DNA of 44,882 bases from a phage. The notes below the pieces were generated by a model that saw nothing but the letters and a program-made list of their open reading frames with translations, did not search any database and had not been told where the DNA came from. The DNA is taken from sequence record PZ445419.1; one strand, 5' to 3'. The translations under genes and the position numbers were made by a program. Within the stretch, counting starts at the first letter, position 1. Each line of letters starts with the position of its first letter. Positions 10,836 through 39,224 of the stretch are shown piece by piece.

Positions 10836-10839
10836 TGAA

Positions 10840-11156
10840 GCGGGACAGGCGGGACGTCCCGTTTTGTCCCACCCCTGTGAAACTGCATACCTACTCACTT
10901 CCATTGCATAATATAAAAGCGGGACAAGCGGGACGTCCCGTTTTGTCCCACCCCACAAAAGTGCATACGTATTCGGTTTTCGTGCATAAAACAAACGGGA
11001 CAAAAAGCGGGACAAACACTAGGCGGGACAAAGCGGGACAGCACCCCGTCCCAGCCAGTGCTGCCGCGGTTTTCAGCCGATCGGGACAGCGGGACAGCAC
11101 CCCAGTCTTTCAGACTAGACGGGGGTCAATGGCCCCCCTCGTCTGAGACTGAATAA
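10840..11156. repeat. iteron-like array of GCGGGACA repeats with GGGACGTCCC dyads, ending in a conserved 57-bp palindrome (module copy 1)
   Basis: About 13 GCGGGACA/GGGACG/TGTCCC copies at 9-12 bp spacing; an imperfect 80-bp tandem duplication (10846-10995); the last ~140 bp is homologous to 38930-39069. Confidence 0.8.
11100..11156. repeat. 57-bp palindromic element, copy 1 (identical to 39013-39069)
   Basis: CCCCAGTCTTTCAGACTAGACGGGGGTCAATGGCCCCCCTCGTCTGAGACTGAATAA; nested dyads CAGTCT/AGACTG, AGACG/CGTCT, GGGGG/CCCCC around a TCAATGG loop. Confidence 0.8.
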
Positions 11157-11219
11157 GGTTTGTTTTGAAATCGCTGATACAATATACATCGGCAACTGCA
11201 TAAAAAAGGGGACTGCATA

Positions 11220-13862
11220 ATGGCAGATCAGGCAGCAGGCATCACGCTAAAGGCTGATGTTGCACAAATCAGAACGGCAAATACTGTGCTGGACTCCTTC
11301 GCACAGAAATCCGAGAACACAGAAAACAAGGTTAAGAAATTAAACGACACCCTCGGCAAATCCAAAAAGGTGACGAGTGACGCCGCGGGCGGAATGGAAA
11401 AGCTGGCAAACGAATCGCAGCGCGCCGCCGATGGCATGACGAAACAGGAGCGACTCGCCAACAGGTTAGGGATGTCGACTAAAAACCTGGGCTTTGCCTC
11501 GCGTAACGCCGCATTCCAGCTACAGGATATTGCGGTAACGCTTGAGATGGGTATGCCGGTTCACCGCGTCATGCTTCAGCAGTTACCGCAGCTAACTGGG
11601 GCGTTCGGTGGACTGGGTAACACGCTGCGTTATGTTGCGGGCTTCCTCGGCCCAGTAGGGATCGGCCTCGCCGCCGTAACGGCAACGTTAGGCGTGGGCG
11701 TGGCAATTACGTCCCGCGCAGAGAACCAGGTCGCCGCGCTTAACAAGACGCTGGCGCTGTCAGGTAACATTTCCGGCCTGACGGCAAACCAGATCCTGGT
11801 GCTATCCGAGAACGCCGAGCGCATGGGCGGGTCGTTCCGCAAGACGCGTGACACAATCCAGGCGCTGGCGGCGGCGGGTGTGAAAGCGGGTGGTGACTTC
11901 GGCGCATTGGCTAAGGTAGTTAATGACTTTGCGAAGGTGTCCAGCCAGCCGATCGAGGATGTGGTAGCGGCGGTGGCGAAGCTGTCAACCGACCCCGTTG
12001 GCGGACTGCGTGCGCTGGCGGATAAGTATCACGTCGTAAACGAAGCGCAGATCCAGCAGGTACAGTCGCTCGTTGATGCGGGTCGTGAGACAGACGCAGT
12101 TGCGCTGGCTAACAAAACAGCCGCCGCGTCGTTTACCACTATGACCAATGAGATCAAGTCCAACATGGGTACGCTTGAGCGGTCGATGAACGTCGTTACA
12201 TCGGCAGCTAAATCTATGTGGGATGCCATCCTGGATGTCGGGCGCGCGCAGTCCTCGAATGAGTCAGAGATGAAAGCGCGTGAATCATTGCAGCGACTGA
12301 CCACGGCTTACTATGCCGAGATGAAAGCGGTAAACGCTGCCGGTGGGGTGATGACCGAAGCGCAGAAAGCGCGTATTAACATGCTTTACAGCGAACTGGT
12401 AGCCCAGGAAAAAGTAGTGGCGTCGCTCACCCTGCGCAACCGTGCCGAGCGGGACAACGCCAGCGCCGCGGACGCAGCAGCAAAGGCGAACGAAGAGGCA
12501 AACCGCACCGCCCGCGACCGCGCTGCGTTCGAGAAGGAGTACGCAACCAACGCGAAGAGGCGCGCCGACGAGATCGCCCGCCTAAATTTGCTTAATAAGC
12601 GCGGCGTGATTGACGAGAAAGAGCTTGCCGAGGCGGTGAAGCAGGTAAACGAGCGTTACAAAGACCCCGCCCCGAAGAAGGCCGCCGCTGTTCGAGTCGA
12701 TGCCGGGCTGAAAATGCTGGAAGTCGCGCGAAGCGAATTAGCCCAGCTTCGTGAGTCTGGAAAGCAGATCGAAGCCAACGCATCGACGCAGACCCGCACG
12801 CAACGCGCGCAGGCGGCCCTAAACAAGCTGATCGCGGATAATGAGCAGTTAATCGCAGCAAGCAAAGAAAGAGCACTAACGGCAGCAGAAAAGCAGCAGA
12901 TGGTCGAATTCGGACGCGTGAAGGAAGTACGCGAGCAGATCGTCGAAGAAGCCAAATTGCTGGACGCGAAAGAGAAGCAGGTCAAGGCGCACGCGCAGAT
13001 CGACGCCTTCGTTAAGAACCAGAACGCCGAGCTAAAAGCCACCGCGGCGGGATATGCGCTTTCCACTCGCGAAGCGGCTAACCTGCGCGAAGAATTGCAG
13101 CTGATTGACCGCCTTAAGCGGGTGGGTGCTAGCGATACCGATATTGATCTGGCGGTGTCTAAGCTGCGCGAAGTGCAGGAAGCACAGACCGGTGCTAACG
13201 CCTCGCTGTGGGATGGCTTCAGCCGCGGGCTTAAGGATAGCGTGGATGAAATGGGTAACGGTTACACGCAGATGACGTCACTCACAAAATTCACGTTCGG
13301 CGCTATGCAGGACACAATGAATGAGTTTTTCGAGACTGGCAAGCTGAACGCAAAAGATATGGTTAAGTCCATCCTGAGCGAATTAATCAAGCTGGCTACA
13401 TCGCAAGCATTCAAGTCCATCGTTAGCGCTTTCGGTGGCGACGGCGGCAAAAACGGATTGTTCGGCGCTATCTTCTCCGGCCTCACTAAGAATGCGGACG
13501 GCGGAGCGTACGCAGGGGGCAATCTCGCGGACTATTCGGGGCAGGTGGTAAGCCAGCCCACCTTTTTCAGTTATGGCGTACAGGCGTTCGCTAAGGGCGC
13601 AGGATTGATGGGGGAGGCCGGACCCGAGGCCATCATGCCGCTGAAGCGCGGGCCAGACGGGAAACTGGGCGTTGCCGCTGCCGGTGTAGGCGGGGGGATG
13701 ATTGTAACGACCAACGTTAACATGGGGACCGGTAAGACGGATACCAGTGTTAGCGGACCAGACCCGCGCACCGCGCAGGCGTTCGGGAAGCAAATCACCG
13801 AGTCGGTCAAGGCCGAGATCGTGAAGGCGACGAAACCGGGTGGTGTACTTTACAAACGGTGA
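11220..13862 (+). CDS. tail tape measure protein
   Basis: 880-aa ORF, Ala/Gln/Lys/Glu-rich helical composition, located after chaperone G/GT and before the distal tail genes. Confidence 0.85.
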   Translation: MADQAAGITLKADVAQIRTANTVLDSFAQKSENTENKVKKLNDTLGKSKKVTSDAAGGMEKLANESQRAADGMTKQERLANRLGMSTKNLGFASRNAAFQLQDIAVTLEMGMPVHRVMLQQLPQLTGAFGGLGNTLRYVAGFLGPVGIGLAAVTATLGVGVAITSRAENQVAALNKTLALSGNISGLTANQILVLSENAERMGGSFRKTRDTIQALAAAGVKAGGDFGALAKVVNDFAKVSSQPIEDVVAAVAKLSTDPVGGLRALADKYHVVNEAQIQQVQSLVDAGRETDAVALANKTAAASFTTMTNEIKSNMGTLERSMNVVTSAAKSMWDAILDVGRAQSSNESEMKARESLQRLTTAYYAEMKAVNAAGGVMTEAQKARINMLYSELVAQEKVVASLTLRNRAERDNASAADAAAKANEEANRTARDRAAFEKEYATNAKRRADEIARLNLLNKRGVIDEKELAEAVKQVNERYKDPAPKKAAAVRVDAGLKMLEVARSELAQLRESGKQIEANASTQTRTQRAQAALNKLIADNEQLIAASKERALTAAEKQQMVEFGRVKEVREQIVEEAKLLDAKEKQVKAHAQIDAFVKNQNAELKATAAGYALSTREAANLREELQLIDRLKRVGASDTDIDLAVSKLREVQEAQTGANASLWDGFSRGLKDSVDEMGNGYTQMTSLTKFTFGAMQDTMNEFFETGKLNAKDMVKSILSELIKLATSQAFKSIVSAFGGDGGKNGLFGAIFSGLTKNADGGAYAGGNLADYSGQVVSQPTFFSYGVQAFAKGAGLMGEAGPEAIMPLKRGPDGKLGVAAAGVGGGMIVTTNVNMGTGKTDTSVSGPDPRTAQAFGKQITESVKAEIVKATKPGGVLYKR

Positions 13863-19600: not shown

Positions 19601-20076
19601 TTAACCACTCCGGTGGTAGCGCAACGTACAGCCTTAAGGCGGGCGTGACGTACAACGGGACTTACTACGATGCAGGTATGCAGCTTTCCGTTGTGACGTC
19701 GGGCAGCGCTGTTAAATCCCGCATCGCGTTCAAGGCGGACCAGTTCTACATCATGCACCCGTCTAACGGCACTCTGTCGTCTGCGTTCATTGTTGACGGT
19801 GGGACAGTGTATATTGACACGGCACGCATCAAGAACGCGTCCATAAACTTCGCGCAGATCACGGACACGCTGCAATCGAATAACTTCGCATCAGGGTCAC
19901 GCGGCTGGCGTATCTGGAAAGGCGGCGCTGCGGAGTTTAACGAAGTAACGGTCCGCGGCAACCTGTACGCCACATCGGGTAACTTCGGGTTTTCTGGTGG
20001 GACCGTGACGATCGATAAGACAGGCGTAAACGTTCCGTTACCCGGCGGGGGACGGGTGAAAGTGGGGACTTGGTAA
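16630..20076 (+). CDS. central tail fibre / host specificity protein (lambda gpJ-like)
   Basis: 1148-aa ORF at the end of the tail-tip block, followed by a terminator. Confidence 0.8.
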   Translation: MTIIYDVTGHKGGGGKQHTPQETPDSLHSLAKIRILLALGEGEFESITSASELRQRVYLDGTPIQNADLSENFPGARVEFRPGTQHQDVIHGFSAVESEQSVGVKLENGTPWVRQINDTSLDAVRIRIGIPALYTNEDNGDLVGGRIDYKIVVYTDNADPREFRFAAVGKTMSLYERDHRIELPPNVNTGWRVEVHRITADSTSAKVVNDIQVQSITEIIDARLRYPLTALLFVEFDAKAFQNIPRVSIKCKGRKVLVPNNYDPINHTYSGDWDGTFKRAWTDNPAWHWYDICITERFGLGRRIKPQMLNRYALYQIAQRCDQLVSDGNGGREIRFKNDMYIQSQTDAWTVLKDLAAIFAGMTWWGNQMLNIVSDQPVAAVSHTITNASVIDGRFDYASGSQKTRYSTFAVAYGNPKNHYEDAIATGQRVELVRRHKINRLDITAIGCTRESEAQRRGHWALISNQLDQQVSFKVGMEGLFFIPGSVVAIADTNISGGFETRGGRLLSDPGTRTVLNTDSEITFRPGDKFLVRTDSGNVETREIASVNGNKVTLKTALDADPIPDQPFCVDGNDIQLQKFRITDLEYDDSTSTFSVRGIEYNDSKYDAVDNGARLDPGIFTQVPDGVMKGPESVTITPSQISSQGQLITNVDIVFPPVKDAVVYEIQWRRTSLQNMAVQWGNDWVNIPRTASNGAHIPNVFSGNYQARVRAIGMGEISSPWVSSAITPVEGRLGGLNAPIITNAISGLHQILWKWNHNNAATDISYTELEVRKTGETEWKFLTNVPYPGAEYAQTSLEFGIYQQLRARVADKIGNLSDWSDPFEGQVSDNVDEYMKGLDDEFLTSEDGKRFQEAIDTMPQGIYEAMLTDAQQLFNARAEYKGIYAEISVAYNVAADAHQAVAQLETLIGTRLDDAEAAIHTLQTAQSTQEQAFAQYQQTVAAKFSEQEAAIQSVQTATADVAGALAEYKTQVAAQFGQQSAAIEQKMTSSFNHSGGSATYSLKAGVTYNGTYYDAGMQLSVVTSGSAVKSRIAFKADQFYIMHPSNGTLSSAFIVDGGTVYIDTARIKNASINFAQITDTLQSNNFASGSRGWRIWKGGAAEFNEVTVRGNLYATSGNFGFSGGTVTIDKTGVNVPLPGGGRVKVGTW

Positions 20077-20082
20077 ATGCGA

Positions 20083-20104
20083 AGGGGCCATCCGGCCCCT
20101 TTTT
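20083..20104. terminator. terminator hairpin between convergent genes (near-identical to 23198-23221)
   Basis: AGGGGCC-atcc-GGCCCCT followed by TTTT; 3 bp after the J-like stop and overlapping the stop of the minus-strand gene. Confidence 0.65.
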
Positions 20105-21372: not shown

Positions 21373-23193
21373 ATGGCAGCGGGTACGCTATCGGTAACGA
21401 ATAATAGCAAGGCGGTAGTAGGGGTCGGCACAACGTTTACCGCGTTTAAAGCGGGCGACTTCTTAACGCTGGTGGTAGGACAAGTCCCATACACCGTGGC
21501 AATCGCGTCCATTGAAAGCGCAACCGCGCTCACGCTGGTACTGCCGTTCGACGGCCCAACGGCAACCGGCCTTGCGTGGGATGGCGTTAAGCGCGATACC
21601 ATGTCGCTGGCAACGATGGGCGTTACCGTACAGGCCCAAAAAGCATTGCGCTTGATGATTGCAGATGAAAACAACTGGCGTGCAATCTTCGGCGATGCTG
21701 AAGAAATCACAGTCACGCTCCCGAACGGGCAAGTTATGCAGGGTATGTCGTGGGGCTACCTGTCGTCTTTGCTGAAGGAAGTAGACCCCGTTGAGATGCG
21801 CAACCTGCAACAACAAGCCGCCGCATCGGAAGCAGCCGCGCAAGGATTCCGTAACGAGGCGGAAGGCTTCAAGAACGACGCCAACACCATCAAGACGCAG
21901 ACCAGCCAACTTAAGGCAGATACGCAGGCGATCAAGGACCAGACCACTCAACTTAAGGCAGATACGCAGGCGATCAAGGACCAAACGAATCAGATCAAGA
22001 CTGACACTGGCGTTATTCGTGATGAAGCCAATACCGCGAAGGAGGACGCGCAAGCTGCCCGCACTGCCGCGCAAGGATTTCGCAATGAGGCCGAACAATT
22101 CGCTAATAGTGTTAACCCGGAAAACCTACTTGCGAAGGCCAACAACTTAAGTGATGTTGCGGATGTGGCTGTGGCGCGCGAAAACATTGGTGTAGACCGC
22201 CTAACGCAAAACATAACCAGCGGCGAAACACAAATCAGGACTGCGGCGAAGAATAAATGGATCTTCGTTAAGGAAAATGGCGACTGGGGCGGGTGGGATA
22301 ATGCCAACAATAAAGCCATGCCGCTGCCGATTGCATTCGGTGGTACGGGGCGCGGCGATAACGTCGCCGAGTTCCGCCAATTCAAATCAAACGGCGACAC
22401 CCAAGATGGGTTAATCATTACGCAGAACGGGTCTGGATTTGGTGGTGTATGCTGGGGGGATTCCGCCGATAAAGTACGCTGGCGCATGGGGATTAACGAC
22501 GCCGCGGGTAATTTTAAGTTGCACTCATATGACGCGTCGGGCGCGTACCGCGATACCTTTATGGAGATCTCTGGATCGGGGATAAGCGGCATGGTGTGTC
22601 ATCGAGATATCACGGTCCGCCCAACAGCGACAGCTCCAGTGTTGTCTTTCGTCCTAAACAACGGAAAAGCTACCGTCCCGGCTGGTAACGTCCGCACGAT
22701 GTGGGATACGGTTAGTATCAAGAGTAACCTGATCTATAAATATTTTGAGAAGGGAGACGGCACTGGCTTCACAGTCAACTGGCCCTCATCTGGTGGTGTT
22801 ATTGCCCTCCAGGGTACATCGGGGCGGGACTTTAAGAAAGATATTACCGACGCGGACGTTACAGAAGCGGTTGCACGCATTGAACAAATGCGCATGGTGC
22901 GCTACGTGTATAAGGACGATGTGCAGGAGCGCGTCCGCTTCGGCATCATTGCCGAGGAAGCAGAAGAGATTGCGCCTCAATACATCAAACACCGTGAGGA
23001 GACGTACGATGTGGAGGTGGACCCCGAGACTAACGCTATCATCGGCGGTAAAACCCGAGACAGGCCATCGGTGGACGTAAACCCGATCGTTATGGATTTA
23101 ATGGGGTGCGCACAATATGCGATCGCTGAGTGTAAACGCCTGGCGGCGGAAGTGGAGGATTTGAAAGCCGAGATCGCGGCGTTGAAGAAATAA
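21373..23193 (+). CDS. side tail fibre protein with possible C-terminal intramolecular chaperone domain
   Basis: 606-aa ORF with Q/T/K-rich tandem repeats (QLKADTQAIKDQT x2) and a C-terminal region resembling self-cleaving S74-type fibre chaperone domains; followed by a terminator. Confidence 0.7.
   Translation: MAAGTLSVTNNSKAVVGVGTTFTAFKAGDFLTLVVGQVPYTVAIASIESATALTLVLPFDGPTATGLAWDGVKRDTMSLATMGVTVQAQKALRLMIADENNWRAIFGDAEEITVTLPNGQVMQGMSWGYLSSLLKEVDPVEMRNLQQQAAASEAAAQGFRNEAEGFKNDANTIKTQTSQLKADTQAIKDQTTQLKADTQAIKDQTNQIKTDTGVIRDEANTAKEDAQAARTAAQGFRNEAEQFANSVNPENLLAKANNLSDVADVAVARENIGVDRLTQNITSGETQIRTAAKNKWIFVKENGDWGGWDNANNKAMPLPIAFGGTGRGDNVAEFRQFKSNGDTQDGLIITQNGSGFGGVCWGDSADKVRWRMGINDAAGNFKLHSYDASGAYRDTFMEISGSGISGMVCHRDITVRPTATAPVLSFVLNNGKATVPAGNVRTMWDTVSIKSNLIYKYFEKGDGTGFTVNWPSSGGVIALQGTSGRDFKKDITDADVTEAVARIEQMRMVRYVYKDDVQERVRFGIIAEEAEEIAPQYIKHREETYDVEVDPETNAIIGGKTRDRPSVDVNPIVMDLMGCAQYAIAECKRLAAEVEDLKAEIAALKK
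21906..21989 (+). repeat. 42-bp in-frame tandem duplication inside the tail-fibre gene
   Basis: CAACTTAAGGCAGATACGCAGGCGATCAAGGACCA present twice in tandem with minor changes. Confidence 0.6.
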
Positions 23194-23197
23194 TTAG

Positions 23198-23221
23198 AAG
23201 GGGCCATGCGGCCCCTTTTTT
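23198..23221. terminator. terminator hairpin between convergent genes (near-identical to 20083-20104)
   Basis: AAGGGGCC-atgc-GGCCCCTT followed by TTTTTT; lies between the fibre stop (23193) and the stop of the minus-strand early operon (23220). Confidence 0.7.
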
Positions 23222-32179: not shown

Positions 32180-32962
32180 TTAACGGCGGCGACGTTTACG
32201 TGGCGCTTCGTCTTCGTCGTCGTCCTCATCTTCGTCATCGCGTGGCTTACGACGCTTGCGAGGTTTTTCATCTTCCTCATCGTCGTCGTCATCGCGGCGC
32301 TTGGATTTCTTGGACTTGCGCGGCTTGTCATCTTCATCATCGTCATCACGACGTTTTGACTTTTTGGACTTGCGCGGTGCTTCGTCTTCGTCGTCGTTGT
32401 CCAGGTCTTCATCGGAGCAAGAAGACCCGCCACCTCCGAAGGCTTCGCCGTCTTCACGGAATCGCAGACCCAGCAAGCCAGCCCCGAGACCCTTGCCGTT
32501 GGTATTGTTCCATGCCCAAATATCAAGGGACACGTTGCAATAACAACCGGAGTAGATCTCCTGGCCTTCAATCTCGTCGCCGTCGATGGTCAGACCTTGT
32601 TCAGTCTGCTTCTCGCCGAGTGACGTTTGAATGATTGGTTGTTTGAACGATTTGGCGTTGATATACAACATGCCTTCGAATTCTTCGGTTACTTCATCGC
32701 GCTCGTCACCGTCGCGAACTGCACATTCCTTAGAATCCTGGGCGTAGTGGCGGTCCATCCACTTATCGGCATTCTTCTCGGATTTCAGCTTGTCGGTGAG
32801 CACTGCGCGTGCTGCCGCTTCCACTTTGTCCACCTGCGGATCTTCTTTATCCAGAAGAATCACGGCACGGTATGCCGGTTTTTGTCCATCCTGTTTAGGG
32901 GTATCACGTTCCCAAATTTTCAGGAAACATACGCGCACATTTTTCAGGTTGACTTTAGCCAT
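32180..32962 (-). CDS. phage ssDNA-binding protein-like (DUF2815-like) with repetitive charged C-terminal tail
   Basis: 260-aa ORF from MAKVNLKNVRVCF (GAGGA RBS); N-terminal globular region resembles DUF2815 proteins; C-terminal ~70 aa alternate basic (RKSKKSKRR) and acidic (DDDDEDD) blocks. Confidence 0.55.
   Translation of the reverse strand: MAKVNLKNVRVCFLKIWERDTPKQDGQKPAYRAVILLDKEDPQVDKVEAAARAVLTDKLKSEKNADKWMDRHYAQDSKECAVRDGDERDEVTEEFEGMLYINAKSFKQPIIQTSLGEKQTEQGLTIDGDEIEGQEIYSGCYCNVSLDIWAWNNTNGKGLGAGLLGLRFREDGEAFGGGGSSCSDEDLDNDDEDEAPRKSKKSKRRDDDDEDDKPRKSKKSKRRDDDDDEEDEKPRKRRKPRDDEDEDDDEDEAPRKRRRR
32195..32400. repeat. imperfect ~57-60-bp tandem repeats encoding the charged C-terminal tail
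   Basis: Repeated GACTTGCGCGG...CTTCATCATCGTC units on the plus strand encode KPRKSKKSKRRDDDD(E)DD repeats on the minus strand. Confidence 0.6.
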
Positions 32963-35206: not shown

Positions 35207-35740
35207 TTAATCTTCCAGTTCGAAATAGGTTTCGACGATTTCTTTTAAATCTTTGTGGAAGTCTTCAACGTCGTCGTCTTCCAGCTTGGCGATGGATTTA
35301 ATTTCGAACGCGTCCAGCAGATCATCAAATTCGTCGTTCGCATCATCATCATCACCGCCTGCAATGATAGCGGCATACTGTTTGATTTCGTCGCGCATCT
35401 CTGCCAGCGGGTCGGCATCTTTCTTACCTTTGCCTTTCGCTTTTTTAGCCTTAGCCGGTTTTTCGTCTTCGGCGTCTTCGTCGTCGTCATCTTCTACGAC
35501 TTCTTTTTTGGCCTTACCTTTAGACTTGGTTTCTTTTGCAGCGCCTTTTTTCGCTTTAGGCGTATCTTCGACTTCGTCCTGATCATCGTCTTCGACTTCG
35601 GTCTCCGGCTTGGCCTTGCCTTTCTTAGCGGTGCCGTTTGCTTTCGGTTCTACGGCCGCGCCAGCAGTTTCATAATGCTTAGCGATGACTTCCAGTGCTA
35701 CTACGCCGCGAGTGATCAGGTTTACGATTTGCTCAAACAT
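35207..35740 (-). CDS. highly charged Lys/Glu/Asp-block protein (hypothetical; first gene of leftward operon)
   Basis: 177-aa ORF from ATG 35740 (GGAG RBS); alternating K-rich (KAKKAKGKGKK) and D/E-rich (VEDDDDEDAEDE) blocks; track ORF starts further upstream without RBS. Confidence 0.55.
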   Translation of the reverse strand: MFEQIVNLITRGVVALEVIAKHYETAGAAVEPKANGTAKKGKAKPETEVEDDDQDEVEDTPKAKKGAAKETKSKGKAKKEVVEDDDDEDAEDEKPAKAKKAKGKGKKDADPLAEMRDEIKQYAAIIAGGDDDDANDEFDDLLDAFEIKSIAKLEDDDVEDFHKDLKEIVETYFELED

Positions 35741-36111: not shown

Positions 36112-36142
36112 CGTTGGTCATTAACCAACAGGAGACTGAATT

Positions 36143-36472
36143 ATGAATATCAAAGAAGCAATTGAAGTGTTATCTAATGCAATCCGCGGCGAAGCGGGTA
36201 AATCCTGGTATTACACAAATGCGGTGGATACTCTGTTATTTGAAGTGTCCAGATTATCGCGTGCTGAGAAGGAGCTTACCGCGAAGCTGGAATTGCTCAA
36301 CGGCACGGCAGCAAGCAAGCTGCAAAAACACAATGAAGAAATGGAAGAATACAAAAAGCAGGTTATCCGTTTGCGCAATGAGGGAAAGTCATGGGCAATG
36401 ATCGCCGAGTTGACCGGAATTAATCAGAGCACAGTGCGCTCCTGGGTACGCAATAATAAAACTTCAAAGTAA
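36143..36472 (+). CDS. helix-turn-helix DNA-binding protein (putative transcriptional regulator)
   Basis: 109-aa ORF; C-terminal SWAMIAELTGINQSTVRSWVRNN resembles a sigma-70 region 4/LuxR-type HTH; RBS context GGAGACTGAATT. Confidence 0.55.
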   Translation: MNIKEAIEVLSNAIRGEAGKSWYYTNAVDTLLFEVSRLSRAEKELTAKLELLNGTAASKLQKHNEEMEEYKKQVIRLRNEGKSWAMIAELTGINQSTVRSWVRNNKTSK

Positions 36473-36482
36473 GGCCACGGCA

Positions 36483-38747
36483 ATGAGCTTAATTAAATTC
36501 GCTGTAACACGACCCGCTAAAAAAGGCGAAAAAGCCAGGGCGGAAAACTTCCAGATGACTACCGAAGAGTTTTTCGAATTTATCAATGATGCGAAAGAAA
36601 TCTCCTCGGTGCATATCAACAAGACGGAAGATAAAGCGGAGTATGCGCGCCGCAAGCGTAAGGCCGATGGCATCGTGGCATATACCAGTGACGGCTTACG
36701 CCGTAAGACCAGCGCGGTGGACCGCTCGATCCTGTTCTTTGATATTGACCGCACCGACACTCGCACCCTGCGCCGCTGCCGTAAGGCGTTCATCGACGCG
36801 GGTCTGGAACACGTATTTCACACCACAACCGGCGACCGCCACCCGCTGAAAGGGGGCACGCGTTGCGCCCGTTTCCTGGTGCTCACGGACAAGCCGGTAC
36901 CGGCTGAAGACCTGGGCCGCGTCCAGTATGCACTATTACACCAACTGGGTCTGTCAGATGTGGACTTCGACGACTGTACAAAAGACACTAACCGCCTTAT
37001 GTACCTGCCACATCAGCAGTCTGTCGTTAAGTGCCACTACGGCAAGCGCGCCCGCGTCCGTCGTCTGCTCCGCCTGGCTGATAAGCTGGGAGTGGAAAAA
37101 GAGGAAGTACGACGCGAACTGACCCAGGGCGATGACGGCGTGGCTGACGGTATTCTGGATTGGTGCTTCCAGGCGGGATTCGAACCGCTGTCGTCTGGTC
37201 GTGGTTATGAAGTACCGTGTCCGAACGAACATCTGCACTCTGGTGAAGGGTCCACCGCTATCATGGTTAAGGATGGCGAGATCCGTTTCAAGTGTATGCA
37301 CACCGGCAACGAGTGCTGTTCCGAACTGAACAGACACCAGCACCTGGCGCTACGTCTTATCGGGATCCCGGACCACCTTAACGTCGAACCGCACAACATG
37401 TCACGTAAGCAAATCGCCGCCATCCTTCCGGGACTGGACGATGAGGAAGTGGAATCGTGCTATGAACATATCGTTGATGCGGTCGGTGACGGCGACGAGT
37501 ACGGCGGATGTACGGACGCAGACCTGGACAACGAGCCGGTTGCGCTGTTCAGTAAGCACGACCCGATCATCGAGGGGCTGATTAACTTCAAATCGACCTG
37601 GTATCTCGCCGGTGAGTCGAACATTGGCAAGTCGTTCTACGTGCTGGGCCAGATGGCGTCAGTATCTGCCGGTATTCCGTTCGGCGGCGCGAAGGTCGTC
37701 CAGTGCCACAACTTCTATTTCGACGCGGAAGGTGGTGAAGCCTCCAACCAGCGTAAAGAAGCATTGCAGATCAAATATGAGCACGACCTGGACAAGCTGC
37801 ACATTATCGATCTGCAGTCACGCGGCTGGGATATCACCAGCAAGTCAGGATTGCGTGAAGTTATCAGCTTCATCAACCGCACCGCTAACGGCGAACCGGT
37901 TGGCCTGGTGGCGTTCGACTCTCTCAACCAGACTGTTGCGCTGCGGTCCGCCGATGCTAAACCGTTCGACGAGAACAACGCCAGCGATATGGGCGAAGTG
38001 GTAAAAGCGCTGAAAGCCATCGCGGAAAATACCGGCGGCAGTGCTGGCGTCATCCACCACCCGGCGAAGGGTGCAAACGGCAGCAGATCCCCCCGCGGGT
38101 CCGGCGCGCTGCATGGTGCTGTTGATTCTGCGTTCTTCCTGGAGCAACCGGACGACAACCAGCCAGGCCAATTGAACCTGTATCACGAAAAGGCACGTAA
38201 CGGCATCAAGCAAGCGCCGCGTGGCTTCGTCCTGCTCAAGTGCAAGGTGAAGGTAGATCTCCGCAAGTCAGAAGCGTTCGCGTCGCACCAGTCCACCAGC
38301 ACCGGTCCGGACTTCGGAGACGTAGTTGCCGGTTGGGACGTCAAACCAATTGCGTCCACCCCGCGCGACGAGACTTTATACCTCGTACCGGTCGCCCTGG
38401 CACCGTTCGCTATAGAACAGGCGAAGGCCGCAGGAAAAGCCGCAGTTAAGGAAGAGAACACCGCCGGACCGCGCACCGAAAAAGAAAAGGTACTTTACGC
38501 GGCCCTGGAAAAACTGATGGAAGATAACCCGGACCATACCGGATTCAGTAAATCGGCAATTGTCCGCCAGGCTGGGCTTGCGAAAGGTGGAACATCGACG
38601 AAGGCAATCGACGATATGATCGAGCGCGGAGTGTTAGGTTTTTATACCGATCCGCACACTGGGGCCATCTATGGGTCGTCGAATATCGTCATCAAAACAA
38701 ATATACCCATCACGCTTTCGGCGACCGATGACGACCTGAAAGATTAA
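36483..38747 (+). CDS. primase/replicative helicase-like protein (AAA_25/RepA-like ATPase with N-terminal primase-like region)
   Basis: 754-aa ORF; Walker A-like AGESNIGKSF followed by a RecA-fold-like region; N-terminal half contains FFDIDRTD. Confidence 0.55.
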   Translation: MSLIKFAVTRPAKKGEKARAENFQMTTEEFFEFINDAKEISSVHINKTEDKAEYARRKRKADGIVAYTSDGLRRKTSAVDRSILFFDIDRTDTRTLRRCRKAFIDAGLEHVFHTTTGDRHPLKGGTRCARFLVLTDKPVPAEDLGRVQYALLHQLGLSDVDFDDCTKDTNRLMYLPHQQSVVKCHYGKRARVRRLLRLADKLGVEKEEVRRELTQGDDGVADGILDWCFQAGFEPLSSGRGYEVPCPNEHLHSGEGSTAIMVKDGEIRFKCMHTGNECCSELNRHQHLALRLIGIPDHLNVEPHNMSRKQIAAILPGLDDEEVESCYEHIVDAVGDGDEYGGCTDADLDNEPVALFSKHDPIIEGLINFKSTWYLAGESNIGKSFYVLGQMASVSAGIPFGGAKVVQCHNFYFDAEGGEASNQRKEALQIKYEHDLDKLHIIDLQSRGWDITSKSGLREVISFINRTANGEPVGLVAFDSLNQTVALRSADAKPFDENNASDMGEVVKALKAIAENTGGSAGVIHHPAKGANGSRSPRGSGALHGAVDSAFFLEQPDDNQPGQLNLYHEKARNGIKQAPRGFVLLKCKVKVDLRKSEAFASHQSTSTGPDFGDVVAGWDVKPIASTPRDETLYLVPVALAPFAIEQAKAAGKAAVKEENTAGPRTEKEKVLYAALEKLMEDNPDHTGFSKSAIVRQAGLAKGGTSTKAIDDMIERGVLGFYTDPHTGAIYGSSNIVIKTNIPITLSATDDDLKD

Positions 38748-38758
38748 ATTTTGCGTGT

Positions 38759-38867
38759 ATTGGTTGCCTATATGGGAATCCCCATATCGCTAAACGATTA
38801 ATTTGTGCGCGAATTGGTTGCCATTTTGAGTGTTTTTATCTGGTCGCATTGGTTGCCGTGTAGCGTG
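38759..38867 (+). repeat. three direct ATTGGTTGCC motif copies in an AT-rich spacer
   Basis: Exact copies at 38759-38768, 38813-38822 and 38858-38867; the first is followed by the palindrome TATATGGG-aat-CCCCATAT. Confidence 0.7.
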
Positions 38868-38907
38868 ATTATTATGAATAGTTATGCAATAAAACTGCAT
38901 AAAGTAA

Positions 38908-39069
38908 GCGGGACAGAAAGCGGGACAGACATGGGGCGGGACAAAGCGGGACAGCACCCCCGTCCCGCCCCGGATGGCGCGGCCTGGCGTGGGGCGGGAC
39001 AAGCGGGACAAACCCCAGTCTTTCAGACTAGACGGGGGTCAATGGCCCCCCTCGTCTGAGACTGAATAA
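38908..39069. repeat. iteron-like GCGGGACA array ending in the conserved 57-bp palindrome (module copy 2)
   Basis: Six direct GCGGGACA/CGGGACA copies plus an inverted GTCCCG copy; 38930-39069 is homologous to the 3' part of 10840-11156. Confidence 0.8.
39013..39069. repeat. 57-bp palindromic element, copy 2 (identical to 11100-11156)
   Basis: Same 57-nt sequence as copy 1, base for base. Confidence 0.8.
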
Positions 39070-39224
39070 AATCCGGGGATTGCAAAATACACGGCAGCAT
39101 GAGGCGAAGTGCGGTCGCGGATGAACTTGGCAACCAATGCGGGTTGTATTATGCTGAGTGAAAAATGCGGTTTGCAGTCACAGCAGATAGCGATCAACTT
39201 TTTCATGCGCATGATTAATATTGG

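Follow-up and report, generated by a model that had tools for sequence, protein, structure and literature searches.

A conserved 57-bp nested palindrome at the end of a candidate replication-origin cassette carried twice by Dhillonvirus genomes

We analyzed a 57-bp nested palindrome in the complete 44,882-bp genome of Escherichia phage Oekolampad (Bas18, MZ501095.1, genus Dhillonvirus), which is the whole stretch of DNA studied here (the window) and is rotated by 551 bp relative to GenBank record MZ501095.1. On balance, we favor the view that this palindrome is the terminal and most constrained part of a ∼175-bp replication-origin cassette that Dhillonviruses carry twice, once downstream of a helicase-primase gene (the helicase-side copy) and once upstream of the tape-measure protein gene (the TMP-side copy). 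According to this reading, which is the best-supported one, the cassette is the origin, or the origin plus a second site comparable to crr of P4, and the palindrome is its structural element. The reading draws on the anatomy of the cassette, the pattern of its conservation, the domain architecture of the helicase-primase and an association between similar iteron arrays and AAA_25 genes in distant phages. The positions of the palindrome in the window are as follows.

39013–39069, plus strand: 57-bp nested palindrome, helicase-side copy (exact match, fold, conservation and pair counts)
39016–39064: paired arms of the helicase-side palindrome, with a variable apical loop at ∼39038–39046
11100–11156, plus strand: 57-bp nested palindrome, TMP-side copy (exact match; invariant arms in 15 TMP-side copies)

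The original prediction, made from the letters of the window, had described an identical 57-mer at two loci with diverged flanks, able to fold as a long hairpin or cruciform and different from a standard terminator, and each of these points could be confirmed. The sequence CCCCAGTCTTTCAGACTAGACGGGGGTCAATGGCCCCCCTCGTCTGAGACTGAATAA has exactly two occurrences, both on the plus strand and with 0 mismatches, and no match was found in any of 100 shuffled sequences. It forms the 3′ end of a longer direct repeat of 174 nt (10983–11156 and 38896–39069), the two copies of which are only 80% identical. Because 57 identical positions in a row would be improbable at such a background identity (0.8^57 ∼ 3e-6), the divergence of the flanks around a perfect core appears to be genuine. 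When folded, the 57-mer forms an irregular hairpin of 20 bp, with an energy of −28.4 kcal/mol for the plus strand as RNA (z −5.0) and of −13.4 and −14.1 kcal/mol for the plus and minus strands as DNA (z −3.8 for each strand), and it ranks roughly among the top 14 of 29,884 genome windows of 57 nt. All arm pairs are Watson–Crick and the DNA folding energy is equal for both strands; thus, the element has the symmetry that a cruciform requires. The motif AGAC(T/G) occurs five times within the 57-mer, in both orientations. In addition, the element resembles single-strand initiation (ssi) signals, that is, stable hairpins of single-stranded DNA with conserved stems and flanking bases, in that its arms, bulges and 3′ ATA tail are invariant.

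With regard to termination, the palindrome shares with Rho-independent terminators a GC-rich hairpin between genes. However, in such terminators the stem is followed by a U/T tract, whereas no T/U tract follows the palindrome (the tail is GAATAA), its bulges and tail are invariant, and promoter and terminator scans gave no terminator-like site on the plus strand at either locus. A Rho-independent terminator was therefore ruled out. It should be noted that the ‘terminator’ annotated in phage CS16 is another, upstream iteron hairpin and not the palindrome.

To characterize the distribution of the element, relatives were searched, as had been proposed together with the original prediction. The palindrome was present in all 159 Dhillonvirus records of the phage collection, at about two places each, and in none of 5,426 complete E. 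coli genomes. Host-type repetitive extragenic palindromes and miniature inverted-repeat transposable elements were ruled out by the lack of E. coli matches and by the two fixed sites per phage genome. Four records, MT446389.1 (TH11), LR990702.1 (Maverick), MZ234029.1 (CHD5UKE2) and PQ843332.1, showed three matching places (six in one record of 88.6 kb) instead of the usual two; these extra places could reflect terminal redundancy, concatemeric assembly or a true third copy.

Copies of the palindrome were gathered by using its left half or its right half as bait, from whole genomes, from the BLAST hits of lowest identity and from a relative (L132/L007) whose helicase-primase is 69% identical to that of Oekolampad, which resulted in 27 distinct variants, 21 of which were aligned. 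The arms, CAGTCTTTCAGACTAGACGGGG...CCCCTCGTCTGAGACTG, were constant in ∼40 copies, including those of the 69% relative, with exceptions confined to one copy that differed at its outermost pair and to a small number of changes in or next to the bulges. Most of the variation was found in the apical loop (TCAATGG, TCAGCGG, TCTGTCA, TATCGG and others) and in the lengths of the G/C runs. In alignments where the right arm had not been used for selection, 15 of 17 and 17 of 17 of its columns were invariant, compared with 31–68% in adjacent non-coding DNA, 38–50% at non-iteron positions of the cassette and 20–30% in the apical region. As far as these alignments go, the palindrome appears to be under strong purifying selection. 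No stem variants were observed among the lowest-identity GenBank hits, in which differences were limited to the loop and the run lengths. Right-half and flank-anchored scans of IMG/VR did not return new variants either (locus L126 and all 15-mer hits were chance matches), and a tape-measure protein search aimed at the TMP-side locus of the divergent clade returned close relatives only.

Fourteen of the 20 arm pairs lacked any variation. The covariation analysis was uninformative because the arms never vary: no compensatory change was found in the arms, and their covariation score was equalled by 60 of 500 shuffles. On the aligned copies, the hairpin therefore seems neither proven nor refuted by covariation. 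On the other hand, the bases of the bulges were conserved too, which speaks for an element recognized by its sequence, as opposed to one whose role is structural only.

The identity of the two copies in Oekolampad had been attributed to either strong constraint or ongoing gene conversion. We compared the copies in 16 genomes with both copies sampled and found that perfect identity, although true in Oekolampad, is particular to few genomes: the full 57-mer was identical between the copies in only two of the 16, and Oekolampad has the commonest allele at both loci. The apical regions were identical within the genome in five of the 16, vs 2.4 expected by shuffling (P about 0.05). Position 53 was locus-biased, being A in 14 of 16 TMP-side copies and C in 10 of 16 helicase-side copies, which argues against regular homogenization of the copies. 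Since whole-57-mer identity was so infrequent, purifying selection explains the identity better than gene conversion, for which the evidence is weak, copies within a genome usually differing in the loop. Thus, the part of the proposal that invoked constraint was upheld, whereas the part that invoked conversion was not, and the two loci appear, from these comparisons, to evolve largely independently under the same purifying selection. A further suggestion, that the GAGACTGAAT tail of the palindrome matches the ribosome-binding site (RBS) of a helix-turn-helix (HTH) gene, had to be abandoned. The match at 36132 does exist, but it is not conserved at the HTH gene of relatives, which read GAGACAGAAT or GAGACGGATT, whereas GAGACTG of the palindrome never changes; the link to the RBS is regarded as coincidental.

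Going beyond the original prediction, we found that the palindrome is the end-piece of an iteron cassette that is tied to the helicase-primase gene, and that this type of cassette is widespread. The parts of the two cassettes and their flanks are listed below.

38896–39069, plus strand: 174-bp helicase-side cassette (repeat family D2, motif map), starting with TGCATAA and ending with the palindrome
38908, 38920, 38936, 38946, 38994 and 39003 (starts), plus strand: six direct 8-bp GCGGGACA iterons of the helicase-side cassette
38962–38971 and 38991–39000: inverted-iteron stem of the helicase-side cassette, in which GTCCCGCCCC pairs with GGGGCGGGAC
10983–11156, plus strand: 174-bp TMP-side cassette (repeat family D2), ending with the palindrome
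10996, 11008, 11024, 11034, 11082 and 11090 (starts): CGGGACA cores of the TMP-side cassette, with an inverted GTCCC at 11048
10838–10954, plus strand: extra upstream units (repeat family D5), at the TMP-side locus only
38860–38902, no strand assigned: AT-rich segment left of the helicase-side iterons (70–77% AT, at least the 99th percentile of the genome)
11150–11190, plus strand: AT-rich segment right of the TMP-side palindrome (70–73% AT), upstream of the tape-measure gene
11220–13862, plus strand: tape-measure protein gene (Pfam TMP_2, with a Phage_TAC_4 chaperone), downstream of the TMP-side cassette

In each cassette, the TGCATAA motif is followed by several direct GCGGGACA repeats, inverted iteron stems, two more iterons and the palindrome, and this layout was conserved at both loci in every genome examined (19 genomes). 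As in iteron-type origins, tandem short direct repeats are confined to the locus: 14 of the 18 CGGGACA sites of the genome fall within the two cassettes, without exception on the plus strand, and the core columns of the iterons were invariant across genomes at 28 of 36 and 31 of 36. The inverted iteron stem of the helicase-side cassette forms the strongest hairpin of the genome (38962–39018, −33.6 kcal/mol). The extra units at the TMP-side locus are two 38-nt iteron-palindrome copies (10838–10875 and 10917–10954), which read GCGGGACA(A/G)GCGGGAC and then GTCCCGTTTTGTCCC. The cassettes are 27.9 kb apart and have their iterons in common, which is the two-site arrangement of the P4 type. Both adjoin AT-rich DNA of the kind expected for an unwinding element, with 30-nt windows at or above the 99th percentile at 38860–38900 and 11150–11190, and an inverted repeat, TTATGCA-N7-TGCATAA (38882–38902), lies within the helicase-side segment. 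The motif (C)TGCATA(A) was found around both cassettes (10883, 10905, 10983, 11197, 11214, 38882 (inverted) and 38896), with two copies preceding the start codon of the tape-measure gene, and is a candidate for either a protein site or a −10-like element.

The helicase-side cassette starts ∼150 bp past the stop codon of the helicase-primase gene, and the TMP-side cassette occupies a non-coding gap of 385 bp (10836–11219) between the tail-chaperone and tape-measure genes. A gap is unusual at such a place in tail genes. An extended −10-like element, TGATACAAT (11175–11183), is located ∼20 bp after the TMP-side copy and was invariant in 15 genomes. In Cornellvirus Shemara, the one outgroup examined, the chaperone gene abuts the tape-measure gene with no gap. 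Together, the gap with its invariant TGATACAAT and the lack of a gap in Shemara suggest that an internal promoter for the distal tail genes was acquired along with the cassette. With regard to annotation, the GenBank ‘hypothetical protein’ bas18_0052 (window 38874–39059) spans the helicase-side cassette; its overlap with iterons as well as palindrome makes it unlikely to be a real gene, and the same is probably true of the small open reading frames (ORFs) annotated over the cassettes in Dhillonvirus records. The gap after the helicase gene of Shemara is likewise annotated with several tiny ORFs.

Two proteins encoded upstream of the helicase-side cassette are of particular relevance.

36483–38747, plus strand: helicase-primase gene, 754 aa, candidate initiator (Pfam; PHROG 3228; structure models; fold matches)
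36143–36472, plus strand: small coiled-coil and HTH protein, 109 aa, Sigma70_r4/HTH_23-like (Pfam), just upstream of the helicase-primase

The N-terminus of the helicase-primase was modeled as an AEP PrimPol fold with a Cys/His module (predicted local distance difference test (pLDDT) 84), the best structural match being the PrimPol of cyanophage S-2L (6zp9, E 2.7e-5), and its DxD motif and Cys/His cluster are invariant. Pfam places an AAA_25 RepA-type helicase domain at aa 357–531. At aa ∼666–737, a helix-helix-helix-beta-wing-beta unit was predicted (pLDDT about 80–89), and its structural matches were all winged-helix DNA binders (MarR family, histone H1 and the winged helix of ORC2). A sequence search of solved structures with the full helicase-primase gave no match, and a protein search with the C-terminal 169 aa alone gave one fragment match only. 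Judging from the models, the protein appears to be organized like P4 alpha and pRN1 ORF904, which are self-contained initiators. As an alternative, the palindrome or other motifs might be bound by the small HTH protein. This protein has been labeled as a ‘transposase’ in PHROGs and some genome papers, a label that we reject, as it is a coiled-coil and Sigma70_r4/HTH_23-like DNA binder.

To look for similar cassettes outside the genus, IMG/VR was scanned with the iteron pair GCGGGACARRRCGGGAC only, so that the scan was blind to both the helicase and the palindrome. The non-Dhillonvirus loci returned were 35 unrelated viral loci with clusters of 5–10 CGGGAC cores. Of these 35 array loci, 27 encoded a protein homologous to the AAA_25 core of the Oekolampad helicase-primase, vs 4 of 56 loci with isolated chance matches, and the arrays usually began within 300 nt 3′ of the AAA_25 gene and on the same strand. 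The homology is distant (24–31% identity, E down to 1e-15). At their N-termini, the homologous proteins have varying primase modules (Toprim; Prim-Pol with PriCT_2; Zn-ribbon with Toprim), and what they have in common is the helicase, a C-terminal ...(R/K)KAFxRxxxxLxxxGxI... tail and the array. The usual end of a distant array is a GC-core palindrome with inverted TGTCCCG on its flanks, for example ...GCGGGACAGGACGGGACACACCC-TATA-GGGTGTCCCATTGTCCCGC. A TATA, TTAA or TTTA center was seen in the array palindromes of loci L036–L124 from IMG/VR and of loci L207 and L209 from plasmids. The plasmid-borne homologues follow the same design, as in Xanthobacter (GGACGGGACACGGGACACCCC-TTTA-GGGGGGTGTCCTGTCCTGTCCCGCC) and, with another iteron in the same layout, on a Methylobacterium plasmid (GCGCAACAGGCGCAACACAACCC-TATA-GGGTTGTTGCGCTGTTGCGC); the plasmid iterons are GCGCAACA in L207, which is a different iteron, and GGGACA in L209. 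Arrays of direct iterons with a GC-core palindrome at their end, placed immediately 3′ of a gene for an AAA_25 primase-helicase, are a recurrent, modular arrangement. Adjacency to the candidate initiator gene is thus a feature of the helicase-side copy, of most distant viral loci and of the plasmids; the TMP-side copy does not have it.

No homologue of the small HTH protein was found in the distant CGGGACA contigs, which rules it out as the common partner of CGGGACA arrays. Relatives with other iterons encode an HTH_3 protein in place of the small Sigma70_r4-like protein. In relatives at 46–49% protein identity, the same gap 3′ of the helicase gene holds different repeats and different nested palindromes. 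A further motif, ACGGCAGCA(T/A)G, is found a few tens of bases past the helicase-side palindrome (window 39085–39096) and recurs in the equivalent gap of these relatives (12590–12603 in L133 and 8256–8270 in L134).

On the basis of these results, we propose that the helicase-primase would bind the direct GCGGGACA iterons via its winged helix and oligomerize there. The GC-core nested palindrome would then be extruded as a cruciform, or as hairpins on both strands once the AT-rich flank opens, and replication would start at this site. The hairpin may provide a defined single-strand/duplex junction for the loading of the hexameric helicase and/or for the first PrimPol primer, in the manner of an ssi-like signal. 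Arms and bulges would be frozen if they are read sequence-specifically, and the apical loop would drift if it is not contacted. The helicase-side copy would represent the position typical of the family, and the TMP-side copy may be a lineage-specific duplicate that works as a second origin or as an enhancer like crr of P4.

Several observations weigh against such an origin. No experimental data on replication initiation for any Dhillonvirus were found in a literature search, and GC skew, used as an origin marker, only tracks gene orientation and the direction of transcription. Both copies are co-oriented with the long plus-strand transcription unit and the TMP-side copy is followed by the conserved extended −10, so that a transcriptional or RNA role is possible. 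It would also be unusual for a second origin to sit midway through a tail operon, and the AT-rich DNA is to the left of the iterons at the helicase-side locus but to their right at the TMP-side locus. The palindromes of the distant family are made up of iterons, whereas the 57-bp palindrome is not, and its role may therefore differ from theirs. Closer relatives, at 44–49% identity, have a homologous tail yet other repeats. Finally, a profile of the distant C-terminal tails aligned with the Oekolampad protein at the right place but not significantly (2.5 bits), and the winged-helix matches combined high probability with weak E-values (at least 0.017).

Of the roles listed in the original prediction, a hairpin or cruciform recognized by a protein is still reasonable. 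It is unlikely, however, that such a protein reads the palindrome as an operator in duplex DNA, in which case a dimeric phage regulator (for example, the small HTH protein) would bind the inverted CAGTCT/AGACG half-sites and control the promoters after each cassette, those of the tape-measure and tail genes at one locus and those of the small genes from 39284 at the other, with the iterons as an upstream regulatory array. The invariant extended −10-like TGATACAAT after the TMP-side copy would fit such an operator, as would arms and bulges that are invariant around a free central spacer, which is what a dimeric DNA binder would yield. The region is also dense in motifs that look like protein sites (the 9-mer ATTGGTTGC and TTATGCA-N7-TGCATAA), and the HTH family co-varies with the type of iteron (Sigma70_r4-like with CGGGACA, HTH_3 with other repeats). 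However, the helicase-side copy has no comparable promoter, since the lone sigma-70-like hit is ∼60 nt away and its −10 varies between genomes; the length of the half-site spacer varies by 1–3 bp, which is awkward for a rigid dimer; and the distant CGGGACA arrays track the helicase gene yet lack an HTH homologue.

We also consider it rather improbable that the palindrome acts as RNA in long plus-strand transcripts, either as a processing or stabilizing hairpin (an RNase III or RNase E site, or a 3′-end protector) or as a put-like modifier of RNA polymerase, and thereby sets downstream expression. The orientation of both copies and all iterons along the flanking genes and the strong plus-strand fold mentioned above would agree with this, and so would the commonest apical allele, which lengthens the stem by a U-G and a C-G pair, an addition with stability in the plus-strand sense only, and the conserved bulges, which resemble those of RNA hairpins recognized by proteins. 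On the other hand, no Rfam match at the gathering threshold was found across the whole window, and the lack of compensatory arm changes and of covariation above shuffles means that RNA processing and antitermination, both suggested originally, received no positive evidence. Moreover, all arm pairs are Watson–Crick and the minus strand folds equally well, there is no U-tract or predicted terminator, and wherever the element occurs it is accompanied by iterons of the DNA type, which are linked to a replication protein. A selfish or recombinogenic repeat, that is, a mobile cassette or a recombination or packaging site that was copied into the tail operon, with recent transfer or conversion behind the identity, seems very improbable. 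The sharp boundaries of the duplicated unit (from TGCATAA to the end of the palindrome), the absence of the TMP-side gap in Shemara and the slightly greater similarity of apical alleles within than between genomes (P about 0.05) may be cited in its favor. However, the element occupies the same two fixed sites in all 159 records and is absent from the 5,426 E. coli genomes, the two copies of a genome are more often different than identical and have one locus-biased position, no terminal inverted repeats or target duplications are visible, and arms that stay invariant with flanks at 80% identity call for purifying selection. Fixed positions and purifying selection thus make a recombination site, which had also been proposed, unlikely.

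Some other repeats of the window were noted. The 9-mer ATTGGTTGC has 15 occurrences, vs about 0.3 expected, and is mostly intergenic.

5241, 5255, 21348, 24421, 26320, 26337, 29294, 35944, 38759, 38813, 38848, 39130, 39220, 39251 and 39961: positions of ATTGGTTGC

In relatives, ATTGGTTGC is found inside the spacer of a strong promoter of the TTGACA-N17-TAATAT type, and the variants TGTTGGCAGC and ATGTTGGCTGC occur at the same regions of related phages. Distinct from the CGGGACA iterons, it probably belongs to a promoter or serves a phage regulator as its operator. Hairpins of the AAGGGGCCATCCGGCCCCTTTTT type with T-tracts are present as two 90%-identical copies (20076–20104 and 23192–23220; repeat family D9) at the junctions of convergent gene blocks; they resemble ordinary terminators and may be bidirectional. 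GTC/GTCATC-rich direct repeats at 32196–32414 and 35313–35600 (repeat families D1 and D3) encode, on the minus strand, Asp/Glu-rich low-complexity stretches in two proteins of the replication region.

If the cassette is an origin, Dhillonviruses might exemplify a widespread and undescribed origin class, in which CGGGACA-type 8-bp iterons and a GC-core palindrome would be read by the tail of an AAA_25 primase-helicase. In this phage group there would be two such origins per genome, one of them in the tail operon; the frozen palindrome would be the site of helicase self-loading or PrimPol priming, and the same hairpin might even be sensed by OLD and Lamassu. We put this wider proposal forward tentatively, as possible and not as probable. 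Literature searches gave no description of these repeats, of the palindrome or of a Dhillonvirus origin, and none of an origin family with CGGGACA-type arrays and palindromes. [quoted passage not shown] These data fit the idea that such origin hairpins matter in infection. If the hairpin of the palindrome were the signal for OLD or Lamassu, this would explain the HK578 escape mutants in the helicase-primase, and the palindrome is a concrete candidate for the hairpin DNA that origin-sensing defenses might recognize in Dhillonviruses. These phages are common E. coli phages that feature in the BASEL collection, in phage therapy work and in screens of defense systems, with no origin described so far, and their replication initiation becomes directly accessible to experiment with a candidate origin defined to 174 bp and a precise palindrome that can be mutated. 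In addition, the blind recovery of arrays beside distant AAA_25 genes suggests a general, modular design of origins in which primase modules and iterons are swapped.

Comparison with known systems places the cassette close to several types of origin. Inverted initiator sites around a central palindrome are known from SV40 site II, with its GAGGC pentamers, and from oriS and oriL of herpes simplex virus (HSV), and origins of this kind can be multi-copy. A palindrome with repeated short motifs is what they share with the Dhillonvirus cassette; the resemblance is one of architecture only, and unlike here the viruses are eukaryotic and their initiators unrelated. P4 is similar to Dhillonviruses in having a single multifunctional initiator (primase, helicase and C-terminal winged helix) and short 8-bp iterons, and its ori and crr are two separate genome loci with the same iterons. 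However, P4 alpha combines a Toprim primase with a superfamily 3 (SF3) helicase, whereas an AEP PrimPol and a RepA-type AAA_25 helicase are combined here, and P4 is not known to have a conserved nested GC-core palindrome like that of the Dhillonvirus cassette.

RSF1010 and P4 alpha have been discussed alongside pRN1, and in oriV of RSF1010 (IncQ) the iterons are bound by RepC, the ssiA and ssiB hairpins are primed by RepB′ and unwinding is carried out by RepA (PMC4234260). This plasmid shares with Dhillonviruses the AAA_25/RepA helicase family and iterons that adjoin short conserved hairpins, which in RSF1010 are single-strand initiation signals recognized by sequence and structure. On the other hand, RSF1010 uses three separate proteins and two ssi hairpins on opposite strands of one origin, whereas Dhillonviruses have one fusion protein and one symmetric palindrome per cassette. 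In pRN1, a stem-loop directly downstream of the replication gene is required for replication and its integrity matters, and a similar stem-loop was noted after the replication gene of Bordetella phage BIP-1 (PMC4234260). As in Dhillonviruses, a protein with PrimPol, helicase and winged helix is encoded with a large stem-loop directly 3′ of its own gene. However, the pRN1 and BIP-1 proteins have an SF3 helicase and pRN1 is without iterons according to the authors (PMC4234260), whereas Dhillonviruses have iterons as well as the stem-loop, and have them twice. Besides the wider family, which appears to be undescribed, it is this two-copy arrangement, with one copy inside the tail operon, that distinguishes the Dhillonvirus cassettes.

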